A stretch of 64,000 bases of DNA from NCBI GenBank assembly GCA_050084985.1, contig JBITNC010000001.1, positions 174,902,001 to 174,966,000 on the forward strand. Direction: 5' to 3'. The notes beneath the pieces are model-generated. The model was not told the origin of the DNA. It made no database searches and saw nothing but the letters and a program-made list of their open reading frames with translations. This document shows, in pieces, positions 4,501 through 58,401 of the stretch (its first letter is position 1; the number at the start of each line of letters is the position of its first letter). Both the position numbers and the translations under genes were made by a program. The DNA is from Nageia nagi (taxonomy: Eukaryota; Plantae; Pinophyta).

Positions 4501-4859
4501 CCCTTGGTACAAACTAAAAATGTAAAAGCACCAAATGGTTGTATGTAGCAAAGGAAGGATAAAACCAAGTTTTTAATTGATTGTATATAGTTTTATTTTG
4601 AAATTAAATAGAAGAAAAAGAAGGATGTTGTGTGGAATATTGATGCGATGAATGTGTGAAGAATATAATTAAACTAATAATATAGGTTAGCAAGGGAGAA
4701 AAAATAGATACAAAGAGTAAATTAAAGATTTTTCATAATAATAAGAAGTTAAAAATGGTTAAAGGATAACTTTAGAATGGTTAAGAAAAAATGACACAAC
4801 TAAAAAGCAAATTGTTATGAGATTCACTATAAGAAGAAGAAAGCAATGCATAAATCAAG

Positions 4860-5826: not shown

Positions 5827-5840
5827 TTTTACCCCTCTTT
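5827..5840 (-). other. Polypurine tract of Tat element
   Basis: Minus strand AAAGAGGGGTAAAA immediately precedes the LTR TG. Confidence 0.8.
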
Positions 5841-6481
5841 GGAGGTGTGATTGAAGTAATGAAATTACATGTCCAAAGAAGAAATTTAGAAGAAAATGTT
5901 TGAGAACTTTAAACTCTTTACTACACTATCACTTGATGTTGATGATGATGGTGAGAGTCCTTTTGCTTCCCACTTTTGGTTTGGATGCCCCAAGAAAGGT
6001 CCTTGAGTGGTGCAATGAAGGAAAATTTTGAATAACTATGTATCTTCAACTATTATGATGTCTTTGTTCTAGAAGGAACTCTACTATTAGGTAGTCTTAC
6101 AATCCCATGTCCATTCTTTGAAATGAAATCTTTCTCTTTGCCCCTTACACAATTCAACCATGAATCTAATGATTCCCTTATGTTCGATACGTAGGAACCT
6201 ATCGCACTTATGTTCATACCTTGAAATAAAGGAGGTTGCCTTTTGTTTTATCAAATTATCAATGAGCTACATGTTATTAATGATACAGGAATAATGAGTA
6301 CACCTTTAACAGTATTGGTTTCTTTATGCTTTTTTCTATCCTTCATGATGTAGATACCTACAAAAAGGTATTAATCATACCCTACATAAAATATTATGGA
6401 TTCGTAATGAGGTGCATCATCCATTGATGATGAGTCAATGTCAACGATCTACTTACAGTTACATCATCGATTTGTCATTTA

Positions 6482-6690
6482 AGTGAGTGAACTCTCACTA
6501 GCTATTTCATTGGCCATCAATGGTCATATGTTTTATGTCTATGACCCGAATACATTATGCTTTGTATGGTTCAAAGAAAAAACCATGTGGATACATAGTA
6601 ATTTTCATTTTATACTTTTGAGTGAACTCTCACTAGCTGTATCATTGGCCATCAGTGACCTTGTATTTTATGTTCATGGTTTGAAGATAT
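6482..6690. repeat. Two-copy ~134-bp-period repeat in Tat 3' UTR
   Basis: GAGTGAACTCTCACTAGCT.T.TCATTGGCCATCA.TG occurs at ~6485 and ~6620. Confidence 0.7.
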
Positions 6691-6839
6691 TATACTATCA
6701 TCATTTTGTTTTCATGCTGCTAGCATTGTATAGATAGTAATATACTTCATTAGCTAAATGGGTACAATATTGTATGTTGAAAAAACTAAAAAAGTACAAT
6801 AAAATATAGGTACCTTGATCTATATTTTTAACATTCTAT

Positions 6840-9800
6840 AATTATAAAGCGACTGCTTCTATGCATAGAATCATTTTATATGGGTGGTATTAAAGTTCTT
6901 AGGTTCTTCTTTGCCATCCATGGATGATAACTTATATGCCCATTAATCCTATTGCTTCCACAACAACATAAGGCCCTAGCCAATTAGGTTCAAATTTTCT
7001 TTTTACCTCATCATTTGTTGTTGTTTTATTGATATTCTCTTTTAACACTAGATCTCCCACATTAAAGTCTTTAGCTTTTATCTTTTTCCCAAATGCTCTC
7101 TTGAGTTTTACATGATATACCTTCCAATGCTCAATGACTCTGATTCTCTTTTTATCAAATAATTCCAACTATTGTAACCTTACTTTTCTTATTCCTTCAT
7201 AAAAAATTTCTCCTTGTAATGAGATCCTAAGTGATGGGATCTCCAATTCTAATTGTACACTAGCTTCATCCCCATACACTAATGAGAAAGGTGTTGCCCT
7301 AATGGCTATCCTAAAGTTGATCCTATATGCCCATAATACATATGGAAGTTTTTCATTCCAATCCTTCTTATACTTATCCCATGTTTTTGATAGAATGCTT
7401 TTAATAGTCTTGTTGGTGGCTTCATCTTGACCATTTCCTTGAGGATAATAAACTAAAAAAAATGTTTACACAATATGAAAATTTTTGCAAATGCTTTCAT
7501 GTCCTTACCTTTAAAATTAGGCCCATTATCCATAATCAATCATTGTGGTACATCAAACCTTGTGATAATTTTTTTAGTAAGGAATGCAATGATCCTATCT
7601 TGAGTGATTGACTTCATTGGAATAGCCTCAACCCATTTAGTAGTAAACTCAGTAGTTGTGATGAAAAACTTGTGAACTTCCTTTGAATGAGGGTTAATTA
7701 AACTAATCAAATCAATGTCCCAAGTAACAAATGGCTATGGAGAGACAATGGAATGCAACTCTTGGGTGGGTTGCTTTTCTAAATTTGCATGTTTTTGACA
7801 TTGTAAGCAAGTTTTTACATGGGCTTTGCAATCTTCCTCCATAGTAGGCCAATAATATCTAATTCTTAAAATTTTTGTATACAAAGCTTTGGCATGAAAA
7901 TTTCCACCATACAAACCATCATGAGCTTTTTCTATTGCGGTAACTATCTCATGTTGAGTTAAACAATGCAATAAAGCATCATAAAATGACCTTCTATATA
8001 AAATATCACCAATTATGACATACCTTATGGAAGTTATCTTCAATCTCACTTTTTCATTTCAATCAAAACTATCAAGAATTGGTTGATTCTTCAAGTAATT
8101 ATAGATATCAAAATACCAATTCTAAAAATCATTCTTCTTTATAATCAAATAGGTGTGAATTTCATGCATACCTTCAATATAAGGAGAGCTCAACTTATGA
8201 ATTGTCAAAATAGTCTCCTCATCTTCAATTTCAATTGGCACAAGAGAAGCTGCACTTTCCATGGCATCTATGTACCTATTATTAGTCCTTGAGATATTCT
8301 AAATAGTATATCTATCAAACTAATCTAATAAATCATCAACTACCAATTTATAGGGCTTTAACTTTTCATATTTTGTATCAAAAATATCTCGTATTTGGTT
8401 GATGACAAGCTGTGAATCCCTATATATCTCTATGTCCTTAATTTTTAATGTAATACTAGCTTTCAAGCTCAATATTAATGCCTCATATTCAGCCATATTA
8501 TTTGTACACTCAAAACCAAGTTTATAGGCCATAAGGATTACCTCATTTGTAGGAGATACTAATATAAAACCTACCCTTACTCCATAAGAACATTTTGAAC
8601 CATTGAAGTATAGTACTCATACAGTAGGCTTATCTTCCATGAGGCATAAGTGTTCATTAAGTATAAATATTTCATCAAATTCATGTCACTGGTAGCCTTC
8701 TATCAAACCTTCACACCATTATCATCATGGATCATCTTCATATTCATCTAGAAATTCTTCATGCATTAGTGACTCTCCATTTTGAGGAAATTCAGCTATC
8801 AAATTTGCAATGGTATGTCCTTTAATTGACTTCTACTTTGCGACATTGATATCAAATTCTTGCAATAACATCATTCATTTTGCTACTCTTCCTACTAAAT
8901 GTTGTTTAACCATAAGATATTTCAATGGATTAATAGGACTAACAACAAATGTAGTGTAGTATAATAGATAATGCCTCAATTTTTAAGTAGCAAATATGAT
9001 AACATAGTAAAGTTTTTCCATTGGGGTATATCTAATCTCATAATCTATCAATGTCTTGTGAAGATAATAAATAGCCCTCTCTTTATTTTTTAAATCTTTT
9101 AGACAAAATATTTCCTCCAATGCATATAATGTAGCAAAGATATATAAATAAGTAGGCTTGGTGAAGTCCATGGGAACTAGGATTAGTGAATTTAACAAAT
9201 ATTTTTAATATCCTCAAAAGTTTTTTGATATTTATCATCACATACAAACTTTACATCCTTATTTAATAGATGAGTAAATGGCCTACACTTATCCCCAATA
9301 TGTGAAATAAACCTTCTAACTAAATTGATTTTTCCTTGAAGACCCCTCAATTATTTCAAATTTCTTGGTGGAGGCATACAAATTATTACATTCACTTTCT
9401 TAGGATCTACCTTTATTCCTCTTATAGAAACCATGAATCCTAACAATTTTCTTTAAGTAACTCCAAATGCACACTTTTGAGGTTTGAGTCTAAGTTTATA
9501 CCTTTTCAAGATGTTAAATACTTTCTCAAGTGCTTGTAGGTGATCTTGGCCTTGTTTTGTTTTAACCAAGATCTCATCAACAAATACCTCAATTATCTTG
9601 TAAATATGTTCATGGAACATGGTGACCATAGCCCTTTGATAGGTATCCCTTACATTTTTAAGTCCAAAAGGCATAACCTTTCAACAAAAATTACCTCATG
9701 GAGTAGTAAAATTTGTTTTATATTGGTCAGTCAGATTGATCAATATTTGATTGTAAATGGAAAATCCATCCATAAAAGATAATGTATCATGACTAGCTAT

Positions 9801-23200: not shown

Positions 23201-23814
23201 CATCAATGTATAAACATTCTGAATCTTTTGTTTATGATGTTGCATTTCCACATATACCATATTTAGCCATACTAAAGAAATATGATGTTAATATCCTCCA
23301 ATCTGTTATATTGTAAATTAGCCCACAAAATGGCATCAATAGTTCTTTTTCAGTATATAGATGAACTCGCACATTTGATGAATTAAACCTAGACTCTAGA
23401 TAGATTTTTTTACTAAAATTTGATGAATTCAACTAAGGGTTTGAAAAAAAACTAAGATTTACAAAATTAAAGGTTTGAAAAAAAGTAGGGTTTACAAAAT
23501 TAAATAAATTTAAAAATTAGATTCTCAATCATTTTACAAAATTTGCAAATTAGGGTTTCAATTTTGTTGTAAAAAATTAATAAAATTTAAAAATTTCATA
23601 GAAAAATATACAAAAACATACCAAAAATTCCTATAGCTCTTCTTCTTCTTCTTTTAATCAAATTGACCACATGATCTTCATTTTTATAAATAACAAGTTA
23701 ATAATTCATTTAGAATTTAGAATTTTAACTTAATTTATAATATAATATACTTTTAAATTTTAATTTATAATATAATACAATTTTAAATTTGAAATTTAAT
23801 TTATAATAAAAAAT

Positions 23815-24600
23815 GAAGGGTTTAGGGGTTAGGGGTTTGGGTTAAGGTTGAAGGGTTTAGGTCATAGTTTAATTAAGGGTTTGGGTTATGAGTTAGGTGT
23901 TTTATTTTAATTTGGATTAAAATTCAATTTATAATATAATTTTAAATTTTAAACATATAATTTATTATTTTTAAATTTTTAATTTTAAACATATAATTTA
24001 TTAAAAATTTTAAAAATATAATTCAAGTTAAGGGTTTAGGTTTAAGGGTAAGGGGTTTGGGTTAGGGTAAGGAGTTAGAATTTTATTTTAACTTAACTTA
24101 AAATTTAAGGGTAAGGGTTAAGGTTTAAGAAATATGGTTAGGATTTAAGAGTTATGGCTAGAGTTTAAGGGTTAAGGTTTAAAATTATGGTTATGGTTAG
24201 GATTTAGAGGTTGTAGTTAAAGTTTATGGTTAGGGGTAAGCGTTAAAGGTTTAGATTAGGGGTTAGGGTTTAAGGGTTAAGGGTTTGGGTTTAAGTTTAG
24301 AGTTAAGAATTAAGATATTTGGGGTTATATATGGTTAGGATTTAGGGGTTTGGATTAAGGATTAAAGGTTTGAGTTTGAGTTACGATTAGGAGTTAGGGT
24401 TTTATTTTAATTTAACTTATATAATTTTAAACATGTAAATTATTATTATTTTAAAAATTTTAATTTTAAAAATATAATTTATTTAAAATTTAGATTAATT
24501 TTTTTTAAATATAATTTAGGTTAAGGGTTTAGGTTTAAATGTAAGGTGTTTAGGTTAGGGTTAGAAGTTAGGATTTTATTTTAACTTAAAATTTAATTTA
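23815..24600 (+). repeat. Degenerate telomere-like (TTTAGGG/TTAGGG) array interleaved with AT-rich spacers, block 1
   Basis: Dense GGGTTA / GGGTTTA / GGTTTA variants; G-rich strand on +. Confidence 0.85.
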
Positions 24601-25724
24601 TAATATAATTTTTAATTTTAAACATATAAGTTATCTTAAATTTAAATTTTAAACATATAATTACATCGAGAGGCATTTCTACAGCTGCAGCATGGGGGGT
24701 GGAGTGGGGGAGCAAAATGTCGCATGTGAGTCCGTCCGTTAAACAATTAGCGGGAAAATAATTTTTTTTAAAATTAAAATTATATAGCCGACTGAAATAT
24801 TAAAAGACACATCTTTTCAAAAATTATTATATAAATGGAAGGAAGAATATCAAACATCATAAAAATTCATTCCCAAATCAATCGAGAGATGTAGTGAATT
24901 CGAACAAGCAAAGTTGGAACAAAAGATTGTAAAAACAAAAGAGAACTTTAATTTTATTGTAAGTTAATTCTCTGCTATTGTAAATATATTTTTACTATAA
25001 TATTTATTATTTCTTATTTTACATACAATTTATACTCTGAATTCTTTTACGCTTCTTATCTTGCTATTCGCATAAAACTTTATCAAAAAATGCTCTGAAT
25101 TCACAAAGTTTTACATGTCTTGGTCTAACATATTCGTTGTTGATGCCTTCTTTTCATTAGAAAGTTATTAAATAAAATCAACACAAGATCATAAAATCCC
25201 CATTATACCAAATTAATTTAGTTTATATTGTTTCCATCACATTTCGTGGTTTTCAATTTGCCATGCATCTCCACCACGCAGTGCCAATGCACTTCTACTT
25301 TGATATTTGAATAAGTAGATTGATATTTATACTTTAACAGAGTCAATACAGTCATCCATAACATTATTTTATATGGTTTTCATTACATGTAGTGAATCCA
25401 CATTATCGCCATAGTTTTTTGCTAGGCTCAGTAAACCTCTTACCGAAAACTATTGTGTATGCGTTTTGTCATAATATTATAATTTTATGGTATAAGAAAA
25501 AAATATTATAGGTATAATAAAAAATATAACTAAAAAATTTCAAAAATATTGAAGAGGATGAAAAAATACATAAAATTTATTTAAGAGAAGAAAGAACACA
25601 AGTTCAGTCTCTCCAGTTCATACTTATAAAGAATGGAATGAGATAGGCGCCTCGAAATGATATCTCTCGACGTTTTTTGATATATAAGGGGTTATATCAA
25701 AGCTAGTTTATTATAAATTTTAAA

Positions 25725-26485
25725 AATATAATTTAAGTTAGAGGTTTGGTTTTAAGGGTTAGGTGTTTGGGCTAGGGTTTAAGGGTTTATGTTAGAATTT
25801 AAGGGTTAGGAGTTTGGGTTTAAGATCAAGGTTAGGGTTTTATGGGTTTAGATTTTAGTTGCAAATTAGGGTTTAAGGGTTATGGTTAGAATTTAAAGGT
25901 AAGGGTTAGGGCTGGTTTAAGGAATATGGTTAGGATTTAAGGGTTATGGTTAAAGTTTAAAGGTTAAGGTTTAAAATTATGGTTATGGTTAGGATTTAAG
26001 GTTTGTAGTTAAAGGTTTAGGTTAGGGGTTAGGATTTAAGGCTTAGGAGTTTGGGTTTAAGTTTAGGGTTCAGAATTAAGATTATGAGTTAGGGTTTTAT
26101 TTTAACTTAACTTAAAATTTAATTTATAATATAATTTTAAATATTAAATATATAATTTATTATTATTTTAAATTTTTTAATTTAAAACATATAATTTATA
26201 AAAAAATTGAATTATAAATTTTAAAAATATAATCTAGGTTAGGGTTTAGGTTTAAGGGTTAGGGTTTAAAGGTTTGGGTTAGGGTTAAGAGTTAGGATTT
26301 TATTTTAACTTAACATAAAATTTAATTTATAATATAATTTTAAATATATAAGTTATTATAAATTAAAAATCTTAATTTTAAACATATAATTTATTATAAA
26401 ATTAAATTTTAAAAATATAATTTAGGTTAAAGGTTTAGGTTTAAGGGTTAGGGGTTTGGGTTAGGGTTTAAGAGTTTAGGTTTGA
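25725..26485 (+). repeat. Degenerate telomere-like array, block 2 (direct duplicate of block 1)
   Basis: Same motifs; 24121-24240 is clearly repeated at ~25915-26035. Confidence 0.85.
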
Positions 26486-26546
26486 ATAGTTTTATTTTTT
26501 ATACACTAATAATATATTTTGTTATTATCTTTATTTAGTGATTATC

Positions 26547-41100: not shown

Positions 41101-42812
41101 GTAATATACTAATTACAGCATAAATTTGACAAAGAGTAAAAAGGTCACTAGAGTTCACACATAACAATAAACTTACTACTTGATATCAATATTATCACTA
41201 AAACATATACTACTTCAGTTCTTTATGCAAAAATAATTCACATAAACAGAGGTATGTTGCTGCAGCACATCAATATGTCTTCTTACAATGCAACACTCAG
41301 TTCTTTCTAAAGCATGAGATTTTATTAATTTATTGACATTATATGCCTGAAATATAATAATAGTTAGCTATAGATCACAGAAAAGTACAACACCTAGATA
41401 CTTTAGTACCTCCTACTTTGCATTTGCTTCATGTATGCTTTATTTTTGAAATTACAATTTCAACTGAGTGTAAGCTTCATGATTGCTTTACTTCTAGAGA
41501 TCATGAATCTGAAGCAAATATAAATTGAAATTATGCAATTCTAGAGGATGCTTCTCATTTAATGTTGTAAATTTAGATCTGGAACTGAAAAAACAAATCA
41601 TCTTTAACCTTCTATCTTTGGTGTAGCTAATTGGGTCCTGTTGTGGCTTCCACAACACGCCCCAAATTGTTAGCAAATTTGGGGATCCCCTCAAATTTTG
41701 GCAATCAGGAGTCACCCAACAAAAGTGACCAAGTTGGTGGTGTGTTGAGACCAGGAGGCATTGGAAATCGGAATCGACAGAAAGTGATCAACATTGGACT
41801 TCTGGCAACATGGATCAAGATTGTGACTAAGGCATGACTGAACACATGTCTGTAAAGAGACAACACCCATGTCCCCTCCCAGATGTATGCTAGTCTTTCA
41901 GTGGGTCCGAATGGCCGTTTCGAGTAGCAGAAAGTAAATTTGGCTAAGTTTGGAACACCTCTTGCCTTGGTGCAAGTCGGTAGGAAGACAAACTTCTTGT
42001 CTCATTTTGGATATGCTCTGGACCCAAGCATGCTTCCTTGGTGCAAGTGTGGCCTAAGACATCCCTCATGACTCACCTCGGACTTGCGCCAGCTTCACAA
42101 GGGTTCCAAAAGAAGATTTTGAGCAACAACAATGAAATTTGACTAAGTATGGAGCATGTCTTCCTTGGGCGCATGTCTGGATAGAGACAACTTTCATGTC
42201 TCTTGTAGCACTTGCACCAAGCTTAAGAGCACTTTTTGGGCGCATATCTAAAGCAAGACACCAGTTTTGTCTTCCCTTGGACTTGTGTTGGGCATTCTTG
42301 GCCAATATCCCAGCGTAGATGGACATCAAGACACACCTCATGACCCTTGGAGGATTTGCGCCAAGCCTGCATGTCCATTTCCAGGGCAAGTGCACATCAA
42401 GACAGAGGTGGTGACCTCTCTCGGATTTGTGCCAACCTTCTAGGATCATTAAGGGAGTATTTCGAGCAACTAGAGATGAAATTGGCGAAGTGTTGAGCAT
42501 CCTCCCTTTGGGCGCATGTTGGGAAGAGGACAACCTCCATGACCCCCTTCTTATCTGCGTTGGGCTCACACCCCTCATCCCTGGCGCAAATGCAGCAGGA
42601 GACGACATGCTTGTCTCCTCCCATACATGTGTTGGCCCTGTCTCTCCTCACCCTAGCGCAAATCCAGACCAAGACACCCCCCTTGACTCCTAGAACACTT
42701 GCACCAGCCTTCCAAGAGCCAATTGACCTTGAATGCCATGGCAAAATGCCTAGAAAACCACACCCATCTCTGAAGGCACACATCCCTAGGCACTTGAAGT
42801 CGTTGTCTTAGA

Positions 42813-42841
42813 AAAACCCTAGAAATATCTATAAAAGGGGG
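42813..42841 (+). promoter_or_regulatory. Telo-box + TATA box upstream of the LTR-encoded ORF
   Basis: AAACCCTA followed by CTATAAAAGGGG, then a pyrimidine-rich leader; TATA conserved at ~56199-56210 in the 3' LTR. Confidence 0.65.
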
Positions 42842-42988
42842 CAAACCAGCCTTCATCTTTGCATGACAACATTGCTCTCTTCTTGTGAACTCACTTGAGC
42901 ATTGAAACTAAGACCCCTAGAAACTATTCCGAAGGCAAGCCAAAGAATTCCTCATCTCCTTTTGCTAAGACACCCGATTCCACATCCA

Positions 42989-43516
42989 ATGGCAAAGATG
43001 AATTCTAAAACACAGGGGTGAGAGATCAAGTTGAAGGAGGCAATGACCATTGATGAGGCCCTAGCAAAGACAAAGCTTACCTTTGATCTTGCAGCTTCAA
43101 TGAGGGCATTGCATGAGGATCCCAACCAGAGGGTGAAGGATGAGTCCACGGAGACTCACCATGTGAGTCGGTTTGTCTTCAAGGTCAACAACATGTTGTC
43201 CGTGACTAGAGTCTTCTTGAACAAGGACTCGAAGAAATCCCAAGATGTGGAGGCTCAGACATTGAAGACTGAAATTGGCAAGGTCAAGACCATTGGAGCA
43301 GAGTGGATTAGGGACATTGCCATGATGGCCAAGAAACTGGAAGTGAGCTAGAGGAAGATTGGCCCTGAAGAGGAAATCATACTCCTTTAGCCATGCCGTT
43401 CACAGGAAGAGGAGACCACTCAGGGACAAGCATGCCTAGAACCAGCAGGTGGGGATGACTCCAAGGCAGGTGCCATGAGTGGAGAAACAACTGATGGACT
43501 CATGAATGCCATTTGA
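42989..43516 (+). pseudogene. LTR-encoded ~175-aa ORF of unknown function (copy 1, three in-frame stops)
   Basis: ATG 42989 to TGA 43514-43516 in one frame: MAKMNSKTQG*EIKLKEAMTIDEAL...KKLEVS*RKIGPEEEIILL*PC...GLMNAI*. Confidence 0.7.
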
Positions 43517-43713
43517 CGGAAGCCATCCTACATGCAATATTTTAATTTTAATTTTATTTTTTCATAATTCAGTATTTTAGACCTCAAATTTTATAAATTT
43601 TGTTAAAGCCTTGTGATGGATGAGGATTTACTCCCACAAGTGGACTTAATTTGGTGGTGCCACATGGCACATTTTTGATTGAATTGATGATATTTTAATA
43701 ATTTTATACTAAT

Positions 43714-43762
43714 TAGGGTTAGGGAAACACTTAGGGTTGCCTTGCAAAACTATAAGTAGCTC
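43714..43762 (+). promoter_or_regulatory. Second (canonical LTR) promoter: reverse telo-boxes + TATA
   Basis: TAGGGTTAGGG...TAGGGTT then CTATAAGTA; the 3' LTR copy reads TTATAAATA at ~57079. Confidence 0.55.
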
Positions 43763-44706
43763 TAAAGGGCTCATTTGTGTGAGAGAGGAATTTTTGAGAA
43801 TGGAACTCTGAACATTTTGCAACTAGACGAGTAGAGTAATTCTTTCTATCTTATACTTGTCTGTTGTGAATGTGGCATGATCTTTGAAATGAAAATTGTA
43901 CAACTCCATTTTATGGTATTATGAACTTGGACATGTGATGTTGGTCATTGATGTGTGTTGCTTGAGATACTTGAAACATTTCACAAACTCCTTGAGGGGT
44001 AGGTGAAAGAGTAGTTGAATATCTTTCGAAGTGTTGAATGTGATGCATAGTTGATGATTGTTCATAATATGCAGCCAGGCTTGTATAACTTTGAAAGTGG
44101 GTTCCTTTATGACGTTTAGCATGTGAACTTCATCCACATTAAAAATGTCATCCTTGTCCCCTTAGACGCATGCTTCCTTCGGTAGACCATTCGTGTGTTT
44201 GGCTACTGCAAGTGGATGAATCCTTCTTCTAGACCCTTCGTGTAGTCTGGCTAGAATGAAAGGATGTGTGGAACTCATAAGAAACCTGAAGGAACTTGGT
44301 TTTAGACACTGTACTTGTTAGTGGAGCTTGATGCAAAGAGCTGAACTCGTATGCCTTTAGCCATTTTCAATCTCCTCTCCTGTTTTTCTTTTATTTTAAA
44401 TTTTTTTCTGCAGCTTTCGCACCCCCAATTTTATTTAACTTGTTTGAGAAACAACCCTTACCTAGATGCGAAGGCAATCCAAGTCCTTGATTAACAAATT
44501 TTATTTGAGTTGTTGTCAGCTTCAAACATCTCAACCAGTCTCTTGAGTCAATTCTTGCACACCCATTTCACTTGACCTTTGAGGTAACCAATCCTCATAG
44601 TGGGTAGGGGTAACACCCTTCCACCTTCATGTTGGTTTCTTTCATAAGCCTAGCAAGCCAATTTGCCTATTCGTAGGGTAGGAAAGAAAAATGGCCCAAC
44701 ATAAAT

Positions 44707-44724
44707 TGGTGCTAGAAGGAGGGC
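44707..44724 (+). other. Primer-binding site, tRNA-Asn type
   Basis: TGGTGCTAGAAGGAGGGC starts 5 nt after the LTR. It matches the complement of the plant tRNA-Asn 3' end as recalled (..GCCCTCCTTCTAGCGCCA) with one C>T. Confidence 0.7.
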
Positions 44725-44910
44725 TGAACTGTCTTTTTTTTTTTTATTAAGGGTTGTTTCTCATTTGTTTTCTTTTTCACTTGCGTCCTTAAGCACATGC
44801 ATACATCAAACAAGGGTCCAAGCCTTTTTCACTAGGATACCCCAAGCATACACTTTGAGTCTTGGAGACATATCTTTTGATGGTTTCTACAACCGTCGTA
44901 TTGTATAGTC

Positions 44911-46419
44911 ATGGCAATAACGCCATGGTGGTTGGCAAGTATACCATGGAACTCTCAAGGACAACCATATGCTTCGCCCACATATATACCACCTCACATA
45001 AGTTGGCAGGCATATCTGAATTCAACCCTGCAATAGTCTCAAATAGGAGTGATCACCAATTTGAATTCAGTCATACAACAACTACTGGTTCAAGGCTTGA
45101 ATGTCAATCATCAAACATGGCCAATACAACCAATGTGTCAAATCCAATTCGACACATGGATCGCACAAGCAGTCAGGTTGCCACAATACAATCGACTCAT
45201 CCCATCCCCAAATACCCTGAAAATATTTCTAGCTTACCCAGTACTCCTAGATCCAATATCTCCGAATGCTCTACAGGAAAACCATGGAAAATGTGTTATG
45301 ACATGGAGCAACATAGGCAAAACAAAGAATTGGATCAGCTAGAAGATGCCTTGAGGAGATGGAGAATGATCCAGAGCAAATGATGGACAGAAGACCTCAA
45401 CAGGGTTTCCATATACCTCCTCCTTGGCTTGCTCCAAACCAAGCGACATGTAAGAAGGATATTTCCCAAGAGACAAAGCAGCCCTTTCAATGTCATATGC
45501 GACACGGGTCGACACAAGAACGTTCGAGCCATCATGAAGAAGAAGTTGCCCAAGTGGAGAAGGTAGAGCACCAAATATACATTCTGGCCTTATGCCTTCA
45601 AGGAAGAGTGTTCCGAGATTGCATAATAGATACCCACCATGATGGCAATGTAATAATGAGTGCGGCTTGTTATGAGGCAAGATTTGTCCCTCTGACTGAA
45701 GATGAACATGAAGATGATGAATCAGTCATAGTGGGATGCCTAAAGGGTGCTTGTGTGCAAATTGTTGGATCAAAAGAGCAATACTCCTTAGACTTCACCA
45801 TAATCAACTTTCTCGGGAGTACATGTCTAGGCCCGATCCAACTTGGTAGAAGGTGGGTAGATGTTGTAATTGGTTCTGACTCTCCAAGCTCCCATTTGTA
45901 CAAAGATGATGAAGAGAATGTTAGTGGTTGTCCCTATGAGGGAGATCAAAGGGCAACAGAACCTACGCACAAAGACACATCAGATGCGGACTTTGCCTTT
46001 GAGTATTTCTTTGATGATCAGCTAGACCAGATAGGGGAGGAGAAAAACCACAATGATGGAGCCAAGGATGAGTACCCCAAAGACCACTTCCCACCCATGG
46101 TATCAGGACCAGAAGAACCACTTGACCTAGAAGATGAAGAAGAGATGGCTTAGGAAGCTCAGGAGCATGAATTTACAACATTCGTGTGCCTCAAGGATAG
46201 AAAGTTTACCAATTGTATGGTAAGCTCCAGAATGGACTTCAACGTGATGACATACGAAGCTTGCAAGGATGTTGGATTTGTCCCATCAGTACCGAATGAG
46301 GAGGACCCCATATGTGTTGATAGTGCATTTCTGATGTTGGGTGTGCTAAAGAATTGTCATCTTAATAGTTTGTGGAAATATGGGTGCTTGATGTTCCAAG
46401 TGTCACCTCTGTCATGTTT
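44911..46419 (+). pseudogene. Internal ORF of the large element, 5' part: acidic protein with two retropepsin-like repeats
   Basis: ORFs 45049-45342, 45359-46153 and 46184- (in frame with 45359 across one TAG) contain a repeated CL..R.F..C......D.NV....AC....FVP motif and LGRRW. Confidence 0.65.
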
Positions 46420-46830
46420 TGTAGAATCCCAAATACAAATTCAAGTGCAATTAAATCAAAACATACAAGTTTGCAACAACATCTGACCTAGGGCATCTAG
46501 ATAAAGCTCCAATAGTGCAATAATGTCAACGTCTGGCCTAGAATAGCAGATACAAGTATTCAACACCTCACAATGCCAACGTCTGGCTCATACAATCATG
46601 CATATGCAAAAGTAATCCAATGATGCCAATACCTAAGTATACGCAACATAATAATGAGATCCAATAGTCCATGACTTGTATTAATGGTACATAATGAACA
46701 ATGATACAATATCAAGACCATAGGGCTCAATGTTGGCCTTCAAGGAGCCAACTAGGGCACAACGAATATGATCAATGTTGGATGGACGGAAAATTGAATG
46801 GGACAACCTCACTCCCTTAGAATTTGAATT

Positions 46831-48001
46831 TATGACATCCCCCTTGCATTATTGTATTAAATTATGGAATTCTAGGAATTCTCCATTGTAACATTTTATT
46901 ATTATGTTATGTTTTAAGTTAGGACTTGGGATAGAAGACTTAATGGGTTAATGGACCCCACTATGAGCCCCAAGTGGGACGTCTCCCTCCCAAGCATAAA
47001 TTAAGTGTTTAATTGTACTTGGAGATCTCGATCATGATTGTGGAAATCCCAAGGTCTGTTTAGCACTTAGATGGATGGATGAGCACTTGTACACGTGCTA
47101 GCCTTGGAGAGACTCCTAGACCCCCATGTTGGCCTATGATGACACCCAACCCCCACACATGGCTCCTAGACCCACGTTAGGCATGCGTGGCACTCTAGAC
47201 TCCCACGTTGGCATTTATGGTATTCCAGGCCCCCATGTTGGCATGCTTGACCCCTAGGCATCCACGTTGGGCATTTTGGGCCCCCTAGGAGGCTAACGTT
47301 GGATTAGAAGAGCTGGTAATGATTCCTAAGTGAGATCCAGATCCAGTAAAATGTTTTAAAAAGGCATTGGAGCCTCATAGTTGGACATGCTTGATTACAC
47401 TTGATATCGTCCAGAGGACAAGAAGTCTTAGCGGCTAAGCAAACCCTTAGGTGTAGCATCTAGGAGGATTAATAGGTTGAGGGATCCTGTTAGTCTATGA
47501 CATTGGTGTAGCACTCTTGCCCATCCAATGGTATTCTGAGGTTGCGCATCTACCATTTAGTTGGTCGCCAGGATTAGAGGAGGGCTCCTTCGGTGGAGAG
47601 GATTCAAGTTTTGAGGGAGCAAGATTGTCCCATTTGTTTGTTCAGTTTGAGGATACACCTTGTGCCCTAGTTGGCTCCATTTATGCCAATGTTAGCCCTA
47701 TAGGGCTTGGTATTGTATTGTTGATCATCATTCATCTTATATACAACCGTTGGGCATTGGATCTTATATTTGTATTGTGCACTTGTCCATTATTGCAACA
47801 TTGAGGTATAATTGTCCTTTGATGCATGTATGAGCCAGACGTTGGCATTTTTGTGTTGTGTTAATGTGTAATTGATGTTGTAGCCCTAACGCTGGCATTG
47901 TGAGGGTTTGAATACTTGCAATTGCACTTCTAGGCCAAACGTTGGTATTTACTTGGTTGAAATTGCTAATATGCACTTGAGAAATTATTTGGATCTTTAC
48001 A
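46831..48001 (+). mobile_element. Solo LTR of a related chromovirus subfamily inserted inverted into the 3' LTR
   Basis: Reverse complement of the host LTR sequence (TATGACATCCCCC...CTTTACA). Flanks GAATT/AAATC correspond to the empty site GAATC in the intact LTR (~52660). Confidence 0.85.
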
Positions 48002-48832
48002 AAATCCTCTACACTAAAGGAGCTTTCTCCAAACTGGCAACCAATTGAATGGTAGGAATGTGACTTCAGAATGCCACCGGATGGACTAAGATGCTACACC
48101 TCAGCTGTAGATCAACATGATCCCTCAGCCTACTCCTAGATGTTGCACCTAGGGATGTGCTTGACGCTGCGCCAAGACTCTTGTCCTTTGGACGATATGA
48201 GTAGTAATAATAAATTTGTATATTCGACAATGGTGCACCAAGGCTTAATATAGCTCAACTGGGTCTCGATCTCATCTCAAAGTCATCACCCAGCCCTCCA
48301 AACCCCAACAATGGCACCTACGGGTCATTCCAGGCCCAACATGGGTATTTGGGCCTCACTTATGCTCCATGTGGGTCCTCAAGCTCAACATGGGCTTAAG
48401 AGGTCATGCATGGGTCAAGGAGGCATGAGTGGGCACCTAGGAGGCATGTGTGCATGTCATGGGCCAACGTGGGGGTCTAGGAGTCTCCCTAAGGTTAGAG
48501 CATGTGTACAAGTGCTCCCAATCTCAACGTTGGGGCCATTAGGTGACTATCCATGTTCTAAGCAATAATAAGCCTTGGGATTCCCACAATCACATTTCGG
48601 GATCTCCAAGTACATTAAATCATACTAAACTACACTTGGGAGGGAGACGTCCCACTTGGGGTTCACAGTGGGGTCCAATGGCCCATTATGTCTTCTATCC
48701 CAAGTACTAACTAATAGAGCACAATTAAATGATTAATTATACAAAGGGGGAATTCGTTGGATTCCAGAATTAATTACAATTATCCAAGGGGGACGTCACA
48801 AAGCCTCCCCTCTCTAAATTGCTTGCCCTCAA

Positions 48833-51800
48833 TCAATTCAATGTTGGATGTGCAAGTATCTTTGCTCCTTCCCATGTTGAGTTTTCATCAAGCAAGTCCT
48901 TCCATTTGATCAGGTATTCCTGAATCTGTCTTGATCTCAGCTTCTTCACTCGAGTCTCCAACACCTTCTTTGGAATGAAAACTAGTTGTCGCTTATCATC
49001 AGGAAGTGGGAGTGTGGTGGATGAAACATCCTGCTGTTCCACGACCTTCTTCAGGAGTGATACATGGAAGTTGTTGTGGATCTTGCTCTCCTTGGGAATC
49101 TCCAACTCATAAGCAGTCTCTCCCACCTTGCGCATGATTTAATATGGCCCAAAGAATCTAGGTTGTAGCTTCTCTGCTCTCTTCTTCTTGAGAATGGATT
49201 GTTAGAATGGTTAAAATCTCAAGTACACCATTTCCCCTACTTCAAAGGTCCTCTTCTAATCATAGTACTTCTTTTGTCAATTTTGGGCCATCTTCAGATT
49301 CTCCTTCAAAGCTCTTATGATGTTATGATATTCCTGCAAGAAGTCTTTAGCTTTTGGGACCTTTCCTTCATCAAAAATCAAGTTTGTAAAGTTAGGAAGA
49401 TCATAACTATACAAATCTTTGAAAGGAGACATTTTTATAGATAAATGATAAGTGGAATTGTAGCAATACTCCCCAACGTGGAGCCATTTGACCCATGTTT
49501 GCTGTTGGCCTGTCACATAGTGTCTCAAGTACCCCTCCACCCATCTACTCACAATTTCTGTTTGCCCCTTTGTTTGGGGGTGGTAGCTAGTGGTTGGGGT
49601 TAGATTAGTGCCACTCAATTGGAACAACTCTTGCCAAAACATGCTCATGAACTTGTTGTCTTTGTCACTCACAATCCTCTTTGGTAACCCATGTAATTTG
49701 AAGACCTCCTAGAAGAATAATTCAGCCAACTGTGCTGCTGTATAGGTGATAGTAATGGCAAAGAAATGGGCAAATTTAGTGAGCCTATCTACTACCACAA
49801 AGATATTCTTTACCTTGCACCTTAGGAAGTCCTGTGATAAAATCCATGGAGATGTCTTCCCATTTCGATTGTGGAATGTGTAATGGCTGAAGTAACTCTG
49901 CTGGTTTCACATTCTCCTTTTTGTTTTCTTGGCACTATACACACTCCCGAATGTGCCTCAAAATGTCTTGCTTCAACCCTTTCCATGTGAACCTCTCCTT
50001 TATTGCCTTATATGTCTTTGTGATGCCTAGATGACCTGCAAGAGGGATATTATGCAAAGCATGGAGCACCTTCTCCTTCATTTCAGCGTTAGGGGTCAAG
50101 AATATTCTATTTCTCTTCAAAATCAGTCCTTCCCTAACCGTGTACCTTTTGTTCCTCACAGTCCTATCTAAGATGCCTTGAGCAAATTCATCATTAGTGT
50201 ATTCAACCATTATAGTCCTTTTCCAATCAGCAGTGATAGAGGAAAGAGACTAAAAGGATGAGTTTCTAGATAATGCATTACCAGCTGTTTTTTTCATTCC
50301 TTTAATATACTGAATCTCAAAATCAAAGGATTGAGTTTTATTTACCCACCTTTGTTGTTTCTCACTCAAATCTGATTGGCTGAGAAAGTATTTCAAGCTA
50401 TTGTGGTCACTCTTGATGATAAATAGCCCACAAACTAGATACTGCTTGAACCTCTCCAACACATGCATGATGGCCAACATCTCCTTGTCATACACGCTGA
50501 AATTCTGTTCTGCACTTGTCAATTTCCTGCTCTCAAATGCTATCGGCTGCCCTTTTTGCATGAGTACATCTCCAACACCATGCTTAGATGCATCACACTC
50601 AACAGTAAAAGGGACTGAAAAATCAAAGATATCCAAGCAAGGACAAGAACACATAACCTTCTTTAGTGTCTCAAAGGCCTCTTGAGCACTCTCACCCCAA
50701 ACGAATGCATCCTTCTTGGTCAACTACGTTAGGGGGGAAGCCAAGTGTGAGAAACCACGTATGAACCTCTTGTAGTAATTGCATAATCCCAAAAACCCTC
50801 TCAGCTGCGTCAAGGTAGTACGCACTGGCCAATCTTGGATAGTTTCAATCTTCTGCTCATCCACCCTAAATCCCTCAGGGCTGATTACACGACCAAGATA
50901 CAAGATTTCAGTCATGTGAAACTCGCATTTGGACTACTTGGCATAGAATTTCTGTTCTTGCAACGCGCTCAAAACGTGTTCTAAGTGGTGGAGGTGCTCC
51001 TTCCACGTTTTGCTATACACCAATATATCATCAAAGAAGACTAGTACAAACTTACTAAGCTGCTCCTTGAAAACTTGATTCATGGCTGATTGGAAGGTGG
51101 CTGGTGAATTTGTCAATTAGAATGGCATCACCAAAAACTCAAAGTGACCATAATGGCATCTAAATGCCGTCTTGTGGATATCCTACTCCTTCATCCTTAT
51201 TTGATGATATCCGAATCTCAAATCAATTTTCGAAAAGTACCTAGCACCATGCAATTCATCAATGAGATCGTCCACTCTAGGAATGGGATACCTGTTCTTG
51301 ATGGTTTTCTTGTTGAGTAGGCGGTAGTCAATGCACATTCTCATGGTCCCGTCCTCCTTGCCCAGCACAACTAAAGAGGCGAAGGGACTAGAGCTTGGCC
51401 GTATGAACCCCATGTCTAACAGCTCCTTGATGGTCTTCTTGATCTCATCCTTGTAGACTTTTGGATGCCAGTAGGGAGTAATCATTATTGGCTTAGCTCT
51501 AGACTCCAACTCAATGGTGAGCTCAAAGCCTCTAGAGGGCGGCAGCCCTTTCGGCATATCCCCCAAAACGTCCAGGTATCGATCCAAGATGCGTTGGACC
51601 TTAGTTGGATGCTCCTTAGCCTCCCCAGAATGCAATGTGGGACCTCCCTTGGCCAGAGTGAAAATGCAGCCCCACTCTATCTTCTCCTTCTCGACAATGG
51701 AACTCAGCTTCTTGGCCGATACAATTTGAGTAATGGCCTCCAATATGCTATGGGCGGCTCTCGATATGAGTGATAACTTCCGCTCACCCCTCTTCTTTAG

Positions 51801-52217
51801 ATCCAACAAAGTAATTGAATCCCTAACATTTCCCGATGGTCTAGATTCATACGTTGGGGTCCTGGTTGGCTCTTCCCCTCCAATGTTGGATTTCCTCCAT
51901 GCCACCACTCCATACCCCAAGAGATCTTGATACAATTGAAAAGTGATGTCTCTTTGGAACTCCTTGATGGTTCCACAGTAGATCTGGAGCAAAATTTCAA
52001 TCTTTGGCACAATCTTGTGTGGAGGAACAGCTCTGGGCTCCCATGTTTGCCCTCTCTTCTTGGACATCTTCTCCTCATGCTGTTCGCCCAAAAACCACAA
52101 GAGTCTCTCCCTTTTCTTCAAAGGGATCTTGTTATCTTCGAATTTCTGAAGGAGTTGGCAAAAAACCACCCTTCCGAATTCTGATTTCTTCGCTTTGGCT
52201 GTAGACTTGGCTTCCAT
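48833..52217 (-). pseudogene. Chromovirus pol with short N-terminal leader; several in-frame stops
   Basis: ORFs 51183-52253, 50934-51116, 50724-50915, 50250-50723, 49935-50210, 49277-49672, 48833-49135. Confidence 0.92.
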
Positions 52218-52253
52218 TTCCTCAGGTGGCAAGATCTTCAGCACTAACACCAC

Positions 52254-53447
52254 TGTAGAATCCCAAAAACAAATTCAAGTGCAACTAAATTAAAACACAT
52301 AACTATGCACCAATGTTTGACCTAGGGCATCCAGATAAAGCTCAAGTAATGCAATAATGCCAACGTCTAGCCTAGAATAGCAGATACAAGTATTCAACAC
52401 CTCACAATGCCAACTTATGGCTCATACAATCATGCACATGCAAAAGTAATCCAATGATGCTAATACACAAGTATGCACAACCCAATAATGAGATCCAATA
52501 GCCCACATATTGTATTAATGATACAAAATGGACAATGATACAATATTAGGCTCACAGGGCGCAATGTTGGCCTCTAAGGAGCCAACTAGGGCACAACGAA
52601 TATGATCAATGCTGGACGGATGAAACATTGCATGGGATAGCCTTACTCCATCAGAATTTGAATCCTCTCCATCGAAGGAGCTCTCTCCAAACCTTGGCGA
52701 CCAACTGGATGGTAGGAATGTGACCTCGGAATGCCATCAGATGACTAAGGTGCTACACCTCAGTTGTAGATCAACAGGAGTCCTCAGCCTGTTAACCCTC
52801 CTAGATGCTGCACCTAGGGATGTGCTTGATGCTACGCCAAGACTCTTGTCCATTGGACGTTATGAGTAGTAATAATAAATCTGTATATCCAACAATAATG
52901 CTCCAAGGCCTAACATAGCTCGCACGGGTCTGGATCTCACCTCAAAACCATTACCTAGCCCCTCAAACCCCAATGATGGCACCTAGGGGTCATTCTAGGC
53001 CCAATGTGGGTATCTGGGCCTCACTTATGCTACATGTGGGTCCTCAAGCTCAACATGGGCTTAAGAGGTCATGCGTGGGCACCTAATAGGCATGCGTGGG
53101 TGTCATGGGCCAACGTGGGGGTCTAGGAGTCTCCTCAAGGTTGGCGCATGTGTACAAGGGCTCCCAATCTCAACGTTGTGGCCATTACATGACTATCCAT
53201 GCTCTAAGCGCTAAATAAGCCTTGGGATTCCCATAATCACATTTCGGGATCTCCAAGTACATTAAATCACACTAAACTACACTTGGAAGGGAGACGTCCC
53301 ACTGGGGGCTCACAGTGGGGTCCAGTGGCCCATTATGTCTTCTATCCCAAGTACTAACTAATAGAGCACAATTAAATAATTAATTATACAAAGGGGGAAT
53401 CCGTTGGATTCCAGAATTAATTACAATTATTTAAGGGGGACGTCACA
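52254..53447 (-). repeat. 5' LTR of nested chromovirus (1194 bp)
   Basis: TGTAGAATCCC...GACGTCACA on +; matches 46420-46830 plus 48002-48800. Confidence 0.92.
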
Positions 53448-54674
53448 TGTTTGGTAAAGCATGGGTACATGTCTTCAAGAAACCTGAATATCTCACCCTT
53501 CTGGGGGATGAATACAAAGAAGAAGATGGAGGCAAGGAGCTAGACATGTTGTGTGATGGTTCTTCCAAGGAAGTGTGGGAAGAGGACAATGCTGATAATG
53601 AACCTGATCATGAGCCGATTTCGCAACAAGAGCATGCAAACGACTATCAACCCTTAAATGACCCATGGTTTGAGATGGATGCCACATTAAGCAGTGAGGA
53701 CCCACTCTTTGAGCTTTCTGCTGTAGGAGAGCGAAGTGCTACATGCGAATGGAGACATGGTGGAAGCAGAGCGGGCATTTTCAATGGAATTGTTTCCAGA
53801 ATTGGGATTTAAAGAGCTCGAAGATGCCTTGCTTGGTGAGATGCTTGATGACTCATGCTCCGATGATTGACTAAGTCAAACTCGATTGGAAGGAAGCAAC
53901 AGTGACAATGAACCACATCAAGAGTTGAACCCATAATAGGAGCCAAGCCATGCATACTATGGAGAGGATTACATATGCTAGGCTGTAGTGTGACTTGTTG
54001 ACGAGGGTATCATCCATGGTGAAGATCGGGACCCAATAAGATCAAAACCTCTCATGGATGAACCTCTTGGCTTGGAGTTTGATGATATAGAAGACTCCTT
54101 GTTTATTCAAGCATGAGAACTATCACATCAAGATATAAGGGATGCTCTTACCAGTGATAGTTATTCCTTGACCTATGTGGATGAAACAAAGGAGATGAAA
54201 ACTGAACTGGTGGTGAGACAATCTGAACTAGTAATAGAACCTAAGCTTGACTCCAAGTGGTACCAAACTTATATGCCTACGATCCTCACATCCAAGTGCT
54301 CATACTTTCCATATTTTGGCAATAAGAAGGTTGTAGATGGTGAGAGTCGAGGTCAAATTGTGGTCACTAATGAAATCAATATACTTGCACGAAAGAAGAC
54401 AGATGGCATCTTGTGTGGCGAGGTGGCTATCGATGGAAATCCTTTGCTCTTATCTTCCGAAAGCTCATATCAATTTTTGAGAATGATTTTTGTAAAGATG
54501 AATTCCTCATATGCACACATTGTATTCTCGTTGGCATCTATAAGATTCTTGTTACAATTCCCCATCTATCCGAGAAGCCTATTACATGCAGATGAAAATA
54601 CACTCTCTATTCATTTAGGTGAGGATCAAAACAAGATCTTTGACCCTGGAATAAAAGAGATCTTTGGATGGTAG
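53448..54674 (+). pseudogene. Internal ORF of the large element, 3' part (acidic, ends ...IFDPGIKEIFGW)
   Basis: Resumes after the TSD with FGKAW (end of the second retropepsin-like repeat); ORF pieces 53447-53812 and 54168-54674. Confidence 0.55.
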
Positions 54675-55030
54675 TTTAGTGTACAAAGTAGATTAGTGTA
54701 GAGAGAAAAAAGAGAGAGAACATTGAAGCCTATCCATTGGGACCCATCTTGAGAGCGACTAAGCTTAGGGACTAGTTCTCCTTTTATCTAGAGATTATAG
54801 TTGGAACAGATACTCTTGATGACCACAATGTCCCCGGACCTGGACTATAACACAGGTGTCCCGATGGTCATTCGAATGACTAGTAAGAGTTCACTCATTA
54901 TAATGAAACCGACAATGCAGCTGTGAGTGACATGTTGACGAAGGCTCACACCTTAAGGACGATACATGTCGTTATGTATCCAAACTTTTATTTTCTAACT
55001 TTGTTTTATTTTGTTTTTTGTTTTAGCTAT

Positions 55031-58000
55031 TGTTGTGGCTTCCACAACACGCCCCAAATTGTTAGCAAATTTGGGGACATTCAAATTTTGGCAATCAGGA
55101 GTCACCCAACAAAGTGACCAAGTTGGTGTTGTGTTGAGACTAGGAGGCGTTGGAAACTAGAATTGGCGGAAAATGATCAACATTGGACTTCTGGCAGTAT
55201 GGATCAAGATTGTGACTAAGGCATGACTGAGCACATGTCTGTGAAGAGACAACACCCATGTCCCCTCCTAGATGTGTGCCGGTCTTCCAAAGGGTCTAGA
55301 TGTCCATTTCAAGTAGCAAAAAGCAAATTTGGATAAATTTGGAATGCCTCTTGCCTTGGCCCAATTCGGTAGGAAGACAAACTTCTTGTCTCATTCGGGA
55401 TATGCGCTCAACCCAGGCGTGATTCCTTGGCGCAAGTGGGGCCTAAGACACCTCTCATGACTTAGCTCGGACTTGCGCCAGCTTCACAGGGGTTCTGAAA
55501 GACAATTTTGAACAACAACAATGAAATTCGATAAAGTTTGGAGCATGTCTTCCTTGGATGCATGTCTGGATAGAGACAACTTTCATGTCTCTTGGAGCAC
55601 TTGCACCGAACTCAAGAGCACTTTTCGAGTGCATATTTAAGGCAAGACACTAGTTTTGTTTTCCCTTGGACTTGCGTTGGGTATTCCTGGCCCATATCCT
55701 GACACAGATGGACATCATGACCCTTGGAGGACTTGTGCCATGTATGTCCATCTCCAGCACAAGTGCACACCAAGATAGAGGTGGTGACCTCTCTCGGATC
55801 TGCGCCAGCTTTCTAGGAGCATTAAGGGAGTATTTCGAGCAACTAGAGACGAAATTGGCTAATTGTTAAGCATCCTCACTTTGGGCGCATGTCGGGAAGA
55901 GGACAACTTCTATGATCCCCTTCAAATCTGCGTTGGACTCACCCCTCATTCCTGGTCCAAATGCAATAGGAGACGACATGCTTGTCTCCTCCCATACATG
56001 CGTTGGCCTTGTGTCTCCGCACCCTAGCGCAAATCCGGACCAAGACACCCCCTTGACTCCTAGAACACTTATGCCAGCCTCCCAGGAGCCAATTGATCTC
56101 GAATGCAGTGCCAGAATGCCTAGAAAACCACAACCATCTCTAAAGGCACACATCCCTAGGCACTTGAAGGTGTTGCCCTAGAAAAACCCTCGAAATATCT
56201 ATAAAAGGGGCCAAACCAGCCTTCATCTTTGCACGACAACATTGCTCTCTCCTTGTGAACTCATCTGAGCATTGAAACTAAGACCCTTGGAAACTTTTTG
56301 AAAGACAAGCCAAGGAATTCCTCATCTCCGTTTGCTAAGATACCCGATTCCACGTCCAATGGCAGAGATGAATTATAAAACACAAGGGGAAGAGGTCAAG
56401 TTGAAGGGGGCAGTGACCATTGATAAGGCCTCACCAAAGACAAAGCTCACCTTTGATCTCATAGCTTCAATGAGGGCACTGCATGAGAATCCCAACCAAA
56501 CAGTGAAGGATGAGTTCATAGAGACTCACCATGTGAGTCTATTCATCTTCAAGGTCAACAACACGCTGTCTGTGACCAGAGTCTTCCTAAACAAGGACCC
56601 GAAGAAATCCTAAGACGTGGAGGCTCAGACATTGAAGATTGAAATCGGCAAGATTAAGACCATTGGAGCAAAGCGGATTAGGGACATCGTCAAGATGGCC
56701 AAGAAATAGGAAGATAGGCCTTGAAGAGGAGATCATACTCCTTAAGCCACACCATCCAGAGGAAGAGGAGACCACTCAGGGACAAGCATTATTGGAACTA
56801 GCAGGTGGGGATGACTCTAAGGCAGGTACCACGGATGGAGAAATAGCGGATGGACTCATGAATGCCATTTGACGGAAGTCGTTGCATCCTACATGCAATA
56901 TTTTACTTTTTATTTTATTTTTGTATAATTTAGTATTTTGGACGAATGAGGATTTTCTCCCACAAGTGCTAGACTTAATCTGGTGGTGCTACATGGCACA
57001 TTTTTGATTGGATCGACAATATTTTAATAATTTTATATTAGTTAGGGTTAGGGAAACACTTAAGGTTGCCTTGCAAACTTATAAATAACCCTAGAGGGCT
57101 CATTTGTGCGAGAGAGGAATTTTTGAGAATGGAACTCTGAACACTTTGCAACTAGACGAGTAGAGTAATTCTTTCTATGTTATACTTGTCTATTATGAAT
57201 GTGGCATGATCTTTGAAATGAAAATTGTACAACTCCATTTTATGGTGTTATGAACTTGGGCATGTGATGTTGGTCATTGATGTGTGTTGCTTGAGATACT
57301 TGAAACATTTCACAAACTCCTTGAGGGGTGGGTGAAAGAGTAGTTGAATATCTTTCAAAGTGTTGAATCTGATGTATAGTTGATGATTGTTCAAAATATG
57401 CAGCTAGGCTTGTATAACCTTGTAAGTGGGTTCCTTTATGACGTTTAGCGTGTGAACTTCATCCACATTGAAAGTGTTATCCTTGTTCCCTTAGACACAT
57501 GCTCCTTGCAGTAGACCATTCGTGTGGTTAGCTATTGCAAGTGGATGAATCCTTCTTCTAGACTGTTCGTGTAGTCTGGCTAGAATGAAAGGATGTGTGG
57601 ATGCATGGAACTCATAAGAAACCTGAAGGAACTTGGCCTTTAGACATTGTACCTGTTGGTGGAGTCTGATGCAAAGAGCTGAACTCATATGCCTTTAGCC
57701 ATTTTCAATCTCCCCTCCTGTTTTTCTTTTATTTTACACTTTTTTCCATGGCTTTTGCACCCCCAATTTTATTTACCTTGTTTGAGAAACAACCCTTACC
57801 CAGATGCAAAGACAATCTGAGTCCTTGATTAACAAATTTTATTTGAGTTGATGTCAGCTTCAAACATCTCAACCAGTCTCCTGAGTCAATTCTTGCACAT
57901 CCATTTCACGAGACCTTTAAGGTAACCTGTCCTCATAGCAGGTATGGGTAACGCCCTTCCACCTAGGTGTTGGTTCCTTTGATAAGCCTTGCAATCCAAT

Positions 58001-58039
58001 TTGTCTATTCGCAGGGTAGGAAAGAAAAACGGCCAAACA
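55031..58039 (+). repeat. 3' LTR (3.0 kb)
   Basis: Direct repeat of 41639-44701; followed by TSD GGTCC. Confidence 0.93.
56359..56872 (+). pseudogene. LTR-encoded ORF, copy 2 (one stop, 14-bp deletion)
   Basis: MAEMNYKTQGEEVKLKGAV...KDPKKS*DVE... frameshift ...RKIGLEEEIILLKP...GLMNAI*. Confidence 0.7.
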
Positions 58040-58401
58040 GGTCCTTTTCTGTAGGTGAAATTAATTGTCAACTTGTGCCTTCACTTTTTGTGAGTTTTCG
58101 AGTTGTTTCCAGTTTGGAGACTTTTTCTAGTGGAATTGAAATGTGGATAACTTAAATAAGAGTATTTTAAATTTGTATTTATGCTAAAATTTTATAGTTT
58201 TTCCAATCTGCGGTGTTGCAAATAGTGACTTTGAAGCAATATGTTTTGCATTTCCATATCATTCTCAACTTCTTAATAAATTTATCTTCATTTATGCTAT
58301 ATAGTAAAGGTACACTATTTCAATTGCAAACAAAATAGCTGGTGAAACATATATTTAGTAGCATTATTCATATGTTCCAATTTTCTTTCTTTGCTTTGCA
58401 G

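Follow-up and report, generated by a model that had tools for sequence, protein, structure and literature searches.

Decayed copies of an unnamed protein-coding gene in both LTRs of a Nageia nagi retrotransposon, adjoining a palindrome array

The outer element and its surroundings

The stretch of DNA analysed here (the window, 64,000 nucleotides) carries an LTR retrotransposon on the plus strand, and both of its 3-kb LTRs hold a decayed copy of a real, unnamed gene of 175 codons. The 5' LTR (41639..44701, plus strand, 3063 bp, with TG...CA ends) and the 3' LTR (55031..58039, plus strand, 3009 bp) are bounded by a 5-bp target-site duplication whose left (41634..41638) and right (58040-58044) copies are identical; paired TG...CA LTRs together with such a duplication identify the outer element as an LTR retrotransposon. 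Self-comparison of the window gave 86.8% identity between the LTRs across 3080 columns (K2P 0.117). A perfect hairpin with an 8-bp stem opens each LTR (41639-41657 and 55031-55049; z -3.0), and upstream of 41639 the contig ends in two of four runs had unlike flanks.

The internal region (44702..55030, plus strand) contains about 3.3 kb of the element's own sequence (44702-46419 plus 53448-55030), which is degenerate and gave no Pfam gag or pol match. Within it, the stretches 46200-46420 and 53448-53470 look to us like a presumably degenerate protease of retroviral type, split by the nested insertion; neither Pfam nor PDB supported this reading. If the protease stretch is real, the outer element would be of a gag-protease-only type. 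No polypurine tract was found before the 3' LTR, where T-rich sequence abuts 55031. The tract may have decayed or been deleted in this copy of the element. Since neither gag or pol nor a purine tract is recognisable, the outer element is non-autonomous or decayed; the only reverse transcriptase (RT) present comes from the nested chromovirus and does not place the outer element in a lineage. A tract resembling a primer-binding site, which starts with TGG, lies 5 bp past the 5' LTR (44707..44723, plus strand), and it may correspond to the 3' end of plant tRNA-Asn. Priming by tRNA-Asn is known from Athila, TatII and Retand (PMC6317226, in excerpt). Membership of the Athila/Tat (OTA) lineage of Ty3/gypsy would be consistent with the long LTRs, the repeat arrays and the possible Asn primer, although these features do not define OTA (PMC6317226).

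The nested chromovirus (46420..53447, minus strand) encodes RT, RNase H, integrase and a chromodomain, has its own 5-bp duplication and is a separate insertion, outside the accessory-gene finding. Its LTRs, of ~1.2 kb, lie at 46420-46829 plus 48003-48800 and at 52254-53447, the former being split at 46829-48003 by an LTR from a related family that runs in the opposite orientation and is 68% identical. Elsewhere in the window we observed further LTR-like pairs (5190-5815/12893-13518 and 14861-15402/30970-31484), an inverted repeat pair (35045-35884/39065-40224) and a G-skewed degenerate tandem region at 23700-26500.

Array, promoters and reading frame inside the LTR

Just upstream of the first TATA box of the 5' LTR, ten degenerate palindromic units of ~53 bp form an array at 41840..42706 (no strand assigned). 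In each unit, GCGCA-type arms on the outside enclose a GACA-N7-TGWC motif, and the units are spaced at 71-73 or 128 bp; none occur in the rest of the same LTR. A strict form of the motif matched 10 times in 970 bp, compared with a mean of 0.2 and a maximum of 3 in 2000 shuffles, although the motif had been picked by eye and the test is therefore post hoc. The 41.6 kb to the left of the LTR contain 6 matches, a chance-level number. The corresponding array of the 3' LTR (~55230-56076) has 6 strict matches. CpG observed/expected ratios of 0.31 and 0.45 in the array compared with 0.29 in the flanks gave no clear sign of methylation protection, and an Rfam search returned 0 matches. A 193-codon stop-to-stop frame runs over the array on the minus strand (42066-42647); it has no Pfam match and is probably a by-product of the repeats.

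According to the earlier note, each LTR is laid out as a TATA box, a leader, a 175-codon ORF, a trailer and a second TATA box, and this order was recovered in both LTRs. TATA 1 (TATAAAA, 42830..42836, plus strand; copy 2 at 56200) is preceded by AAACCCTA at 42814 and followed by an initiator-like pyrimidine motif (42850..42863, plus strand), which is the likely transcription start. The leader, described in the note as pyrimidine-rich, is so only mildly (55-56%), and an additional upstream ATG at 42863 is found in copy 1 and is lacking from copy 2. The ORF itself lies 1.35 kb inside both LTRs, at 42989..43516 (copy 1, 175 codons) and 56359..56872 (copy 2), both on the plus strand. Behind it lies a candidate 3'-end signal, a T-rich trailer (43531..43620, plus strand); its AT-richness was correctly noted (20% GC, 49% T), and no AATAAA was found in it. 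TATA 2 (43751..43758, plus strand; copy 2 at 57080), with two TAGGGTT motifs ahead (43714 and 43732), is the likely main LTR promoter. Motifs of the AAACCCTA/TAGGGTT type, presumably telo-box-like, adjoin both TATA boxes.

Codons 11, 121 and 134 of copy 1 are premature stops; copy 2 carries a single one, at codon 85, together with a frameshifting deletion of 14 bp near codons 119-123. The breaks differ between the copies, as the earlier note had stated: of the four premature stops, three occur in one LTR and not in its partner, and the same holds for the frameshift. Because the LTRs were identical at insertion, these private lesions arose after it; the LTR pair gives no date for the stop at codon 121, where the other LTR is deleted. 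Homologues are open at all four stop columns, with a residue present in 20, 22, 17 and 12 of 29 rows. LTR-LTR differences within the ORF are distributed over codon positions as 18/13/15, matching a neutral simulation, and such neutral divergence of sister LTRs is as expected after insertion. Under a simple decay model, with 0.64 stops per copy, the two copies together should have ~1.3 premature stops, somewhat fewer than the four observed. An ATG-started frame of at least 175 codons arose in 6 of 1000 block-shuffled LTRs.

The same arrangement was seen in a distant relative, L001, which is the only one with DNA and is known from 1.5 kb alone, which may or may not be LTR sequence. Five palindromes of ~50 bp stand in L001; they are cleaner than those of the window but built on the same arm logic, and their spacers are shorter by about one base. 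Past them come the same TATAAAA (with which TATA 1 aligns), an initiator-like motif equally far from the TATA box, a leader of similar length and then the ORF. A AAACCCTA/TAGGGTT-type motif also stands before its TATA box (L001 962). In a blastn comparison of L001 with the LTRs, the core of the ORF gave the only strong match (227 bp at 76%), and the frame is colinear without indels across 124 codons. Other non-coding DNA barely aligns; array, promoter and gene thus travel jointly as a cassette in two families.

Homologues, selection and predicted structure

A phmmer search of 1.84 billion representatives gave 30 matches, 29 of which belong to the family of the ORF; the remaining one (P0033) is a false match caused by a coiled coil and was rejected. 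Homologous protein records total 38, none of them named, and they form several supported subclades in a tree of 27 rows from which short fragments were excluded. Full-length open homologues include P0006 (175 aa), P0008 and P0034 (172 aa each) and P0035 (188 aa). The start codon is shared: Met stands at column 1 in 19 of the 20 rows that cover it, four of which have longer called N-termini. Several subclades keep open frames at 40-60% identity, a degree of intactness that is inflated by the protein libraries containing called open frames only. Pairwise identity is highest at residues 49-80 (0.63, compared with 0.29 and 0.22 at the ends). The protein searches returned no named homologue, and Pfam gave nothing at threshold for the ORF or for 28 alignment members. 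A metagenome scan for DNA of the family yielded one locus out of 114 pattern matches, and neither viral contigs nor the genomes of prokaryotes added a further locus (0 each). No fused longer form was present among 7993 scored longer candidates, which is a weak test.

Selection was assessed by site-class and simulation tests; Nei-Gojobori ratios (0.33 for the LTR pair) were set aside because transition bias inflates them. Over codons 32-116, copy 1 differs from L001 at 18% of 0-fold and 50% of 4-fold sites (Fisher p=0.0014), with differences of 23/13/37 by codon position; for copy 2 the corresponding values are 25% and 52% (p=0.017), falling to p=0.12 when codons 1-116 are taken. Codons 1-31 showed no sign of selection in the site-class comparison with L001. 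At 58 codons common to both LTRs, the comparison with L001 gave 22 amino-acid changes against 28.7 expected (p=0.005), the neutral expectation being a transition-matched simulation; the synonymous excess alone was not significant there (10 versus 6.4, p=0.10). The evidence for selection thus comes from one distant relative with DNA (L001), which is a thin base, and the protein alignment. The two LTR copies diverged neutrally from one another, and the site patterns show that the ORF is under purifying selection relative to L001.

These data agree with the earlier note in its main claim, that of an LTR-borne protein-coding accessory gene and not a one-off capture: there is a homologue family with codon-level selection, the same cassette layout recurs in L001, and contigs cover the whole LTR in four of four runs. 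We regard it as very probable that the gene is real. The opposite explanation, a captured or chance frame carried passively with its core conserved as a DNA element, fits the broken state of both window copies, the neutral 18/13/15 pattern and the four premature stops where ~1.3 are expected, but sister-LTR neutrality is expected after insertion, and the excess of differences at third positions and fourfold sites against L001, the common start codon and the fact that frames have stayed open at 40-60% identity across several subclades make it highly improbable.

AlphaFold2 models of two natural intact homologues, both of moderate confidence (mean pLDDT 66 and 60; pTM 0.46 and 0.45), share the same topology. 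The predicted order is a helix at residues 34-43, four strands at 48-95 and a helix from ~103-105 to 127-131, with disordered ends. The note had spoken of a helical-looking core; the models instead give a core that is mainly beta-sheet. The acidic tail that it described is present, with a net charge of -4 to -9 in all five long proteins checked. The most conserved columns cluster in the hairpin region at 52-79, which is net basic, and residues 55-85 carry a net charge of +2 to +7 in five of five proteins. Conserved cysteines were absent from the five proteins checked (0-2 per protein).

A Foldseek search of PDB and viral libraries returned no match at E<=0.001, and a PDB sequence-profile search gave 0 matches. 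In a wide structural search, in which the absence of a match does not establish a new fold, the top Z scores were 5.8 and 4.8 for the two models and no entry stood out. Pur-alpha (Z 5.2, rmsd 7.0, 81 aligned) and WRKY1 (Z 4.7, rmsd 3.7, 53 aligned) tie with unrelated sheets, as do the PUR- and WRKY-type sheets matched by the second model (Z 4.0-4.2). The nearest entries in the ESM Atlas, to be read as leads only, are unnamed Streptophyta protein clusters at 0.89 (171-317 aa) and one cluster at 0.87 with PF04195 in 36% of its members; a search with the core alone gave nothing named. Judged by sequence, the protein is a new family without a named relative. It probably binds nucleic acid.

Proposed working, alternatives and precedents

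Taken as a whole, our preferred reading is that of a selected LTR gene with its own U3 promoter, whose product would be a nucleic-acid-binding regulator acting in trans, possibly via the palindromes; we give it a probability of roughly 0.45. A short mRNA would start from TATA 1 and end either within the T-rich trailer or at some point beyond it in the LTR, and the genomic RNA would start from TATA 2; we think this assignment somewhat favoured. The placement of the ORF in U3 is one that we infer, and it requires TATA 2 to be the genomic-RNA start. Because U3 is copied into both LTRs, each insertion and each solo LTR would carry the gene. The acidic, predictedly disordered tail might act like an activation or recruitment region, and a dimer or a pair of dimers might occupy the four half-sites of each palindrome and so activate or de-repress the LTRs of the family. 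This step is drawn by analogy with VANC on VANDAL repeats, and we consider it doubtful. A little more doubtful still is the fullest version, in which the LTR would be an autonomous regulatory module composed of an operator-like array, a promoter and a gene whose product, a new sequence-specific DNA-binding protein, reads the array. If that were true, every LTR, solo LTRs included, could switch on or shield the family in trans; VANC anti-silencing would have its parallel among retrotransposons, protein and operator spacing would diverge jointly from family to family, and there would be a possible reason for the very high copy number of such elements.

The parallel with VANC is that of a transposon protein beside repeated non-coding motifs that differ between related families, as in the Mu-like VANDAL elements (PMC5735166 and PMC12844716, in excerpt), and the palindrome array consists of such repeated family-specific motifs in non-coding DNA. 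However, VANDAL is a DNA transposon with short direct motifs, whereas a retrotransposon with palindromic four-arm units is seen here. In Pfam profiles and PDB sequences no homology was found.

Among the alternatives, one modelled on BARE survives best, and we hold it to be unlikely. TATA 1, lying behind an ordinary palindromic enhancer read by host factors, would start the genomic RNA. The ORF, once a 5' extra ORF and since moved into the LTR, would come first among the genes of that RNA and lie in R/U5; TATA 2 would give a gag-pol mRNA, and the protein would serve RNA handling or particles without binding palindromes. BARE likewise has two TATA boxes in one LTR, of which TATA1 gives the replicated and TATA2 the translated RNA (PMC3735527, in excerpt). 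Sireviruses share a palindrome array in the LTR, which there sits in the cis-regulatory part, and the available part of that report invokes no protein for these palindrome-rich regions, which counts against palindrome binding in our preferred reading (PMC4728375). Moreover, 21-33% of Ogre, TatII and Tekay elements have 5' extra ORFs in sense orientation (PMC6317226, in excerpt), and AATAAA is absent from the trailer. Against this stand a derivative without TATA 1 and the ORF start, seen in two of four runs with one contig each (see below), and the sharp T-rich trailer directly past the stop codon, which resembles a 3' UTR. The TATA1 RNA of BARE is uncapped and untranslated, which would leave a selected ORF right behind TATA 1 unexplained. 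Sireviruses and BARE are also Copia elements, and the excerpted reports describe no protein gene between the features in question (PMC4728375; PMC3735527).

Somewhat less likely again is that the gene lies in U3 under its own promoter but that the protein it encodes works against the defences of the host, on the level of either RNA or protein, by binding small RNA or dsRNA or as an adaptor to a host protein, with the palindromes unrelated to it. A basic beta-hairpin with flanking helices would suit RNA binding as well as DNA binding, and a Tekay extra ORF is reported to be structurally similar to dsRNA-binding proteins (PMC12844716, in excerpt), but the order of array and gene, kept in L001 despite changed spacers, would be left unexplained.

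In plants, extra ORFs have been described in the internal region of retrotransposons (PMC7264820; likewise PMC11963269, in excerpt). The accessory ORF resembles the known aORFs and eORFs (Grande gene23, Retand TRP28, the Athila ORF) in being conserved across many copies and families, in its unclear origin and in its setting in a long-LTR element. Some of these have their own promoter (gene23) or predicted DNA binding (TRP28), according to PMC7264820 and to excerpts of PMC6317226 and PMC11963269. In contrast to the aORFs and eORFs, which mostly lie between pol and the 3' LTR, and outside the usual definition by an internal position up- or downstream of gag-pol, the accessory ORF is inside the LTR and duplicated in each element; nor did the accessory protein match PF04195, PF03078 or PF10536 in Pfam. 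No plant retrotransposon protein gene within an LTR was found in the literature covered, a scope outside which most subscription journals, Repbase and preprint supplements fall.

LTR-encoded accessory genes exist in retroviruses, in the form of MMTV sag and of HIV nef, which overlaps U3; MMTV sag is a membrane superantigen of an animal retrovirus. Like sag and other retroviral U3 ORFs, the frame described here is protein-coding within an LTR, but unlike sag the cassette has its own TATA box inside the LTR, and no relation in sequence or fold was seen. Among plant elements, Cassandra TRIMs also have LTRs that bear a gene-like unit with its own promoter, although the unit is a 5S RNA sequence with a Pol III promoter and not a protein gene (10.1101/2023.07.14.548913, in excerpt).

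What is new here is a genuine gene family without a name, which sits in an uncommon location, the LTR, and has a regulatory anatomy that can be tested. A gene of this class would be missed because LTRs are annotated as non-coding and because a large survey of plant extra ORFs, which classified ORFs relative to the polyprotein, used a cut-off of 250 codons (PMC6317226, in excerpt), above the 175 codons found here. If the gene acts in trans, solo LTRs and non-autonomous elements would not be inert but would add gene dosage. The adjoining palindromes offer a handle on the means by which LTR retrotransposons of plants may counteract silencing.

The LTR family is abundant, with 1993-9116 matching contigs per run in all four runs (three studies) and all 30 bins of the LTR covered; contig depth does not equal copy number, and depth variation along the LTR was left out of the reasoning. 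One contig in each of the runs X1 and X5 (two of the four) has a joint that skips 42729-43199, so that TATA 1 and the ORF start are gone. The joint points to a possible cassette-less subfamily; it also hints, weakly, that in cis the element can do without the cassette and that TATA 2 is sufficient. In place of the removed stretch it has 17 other letters.
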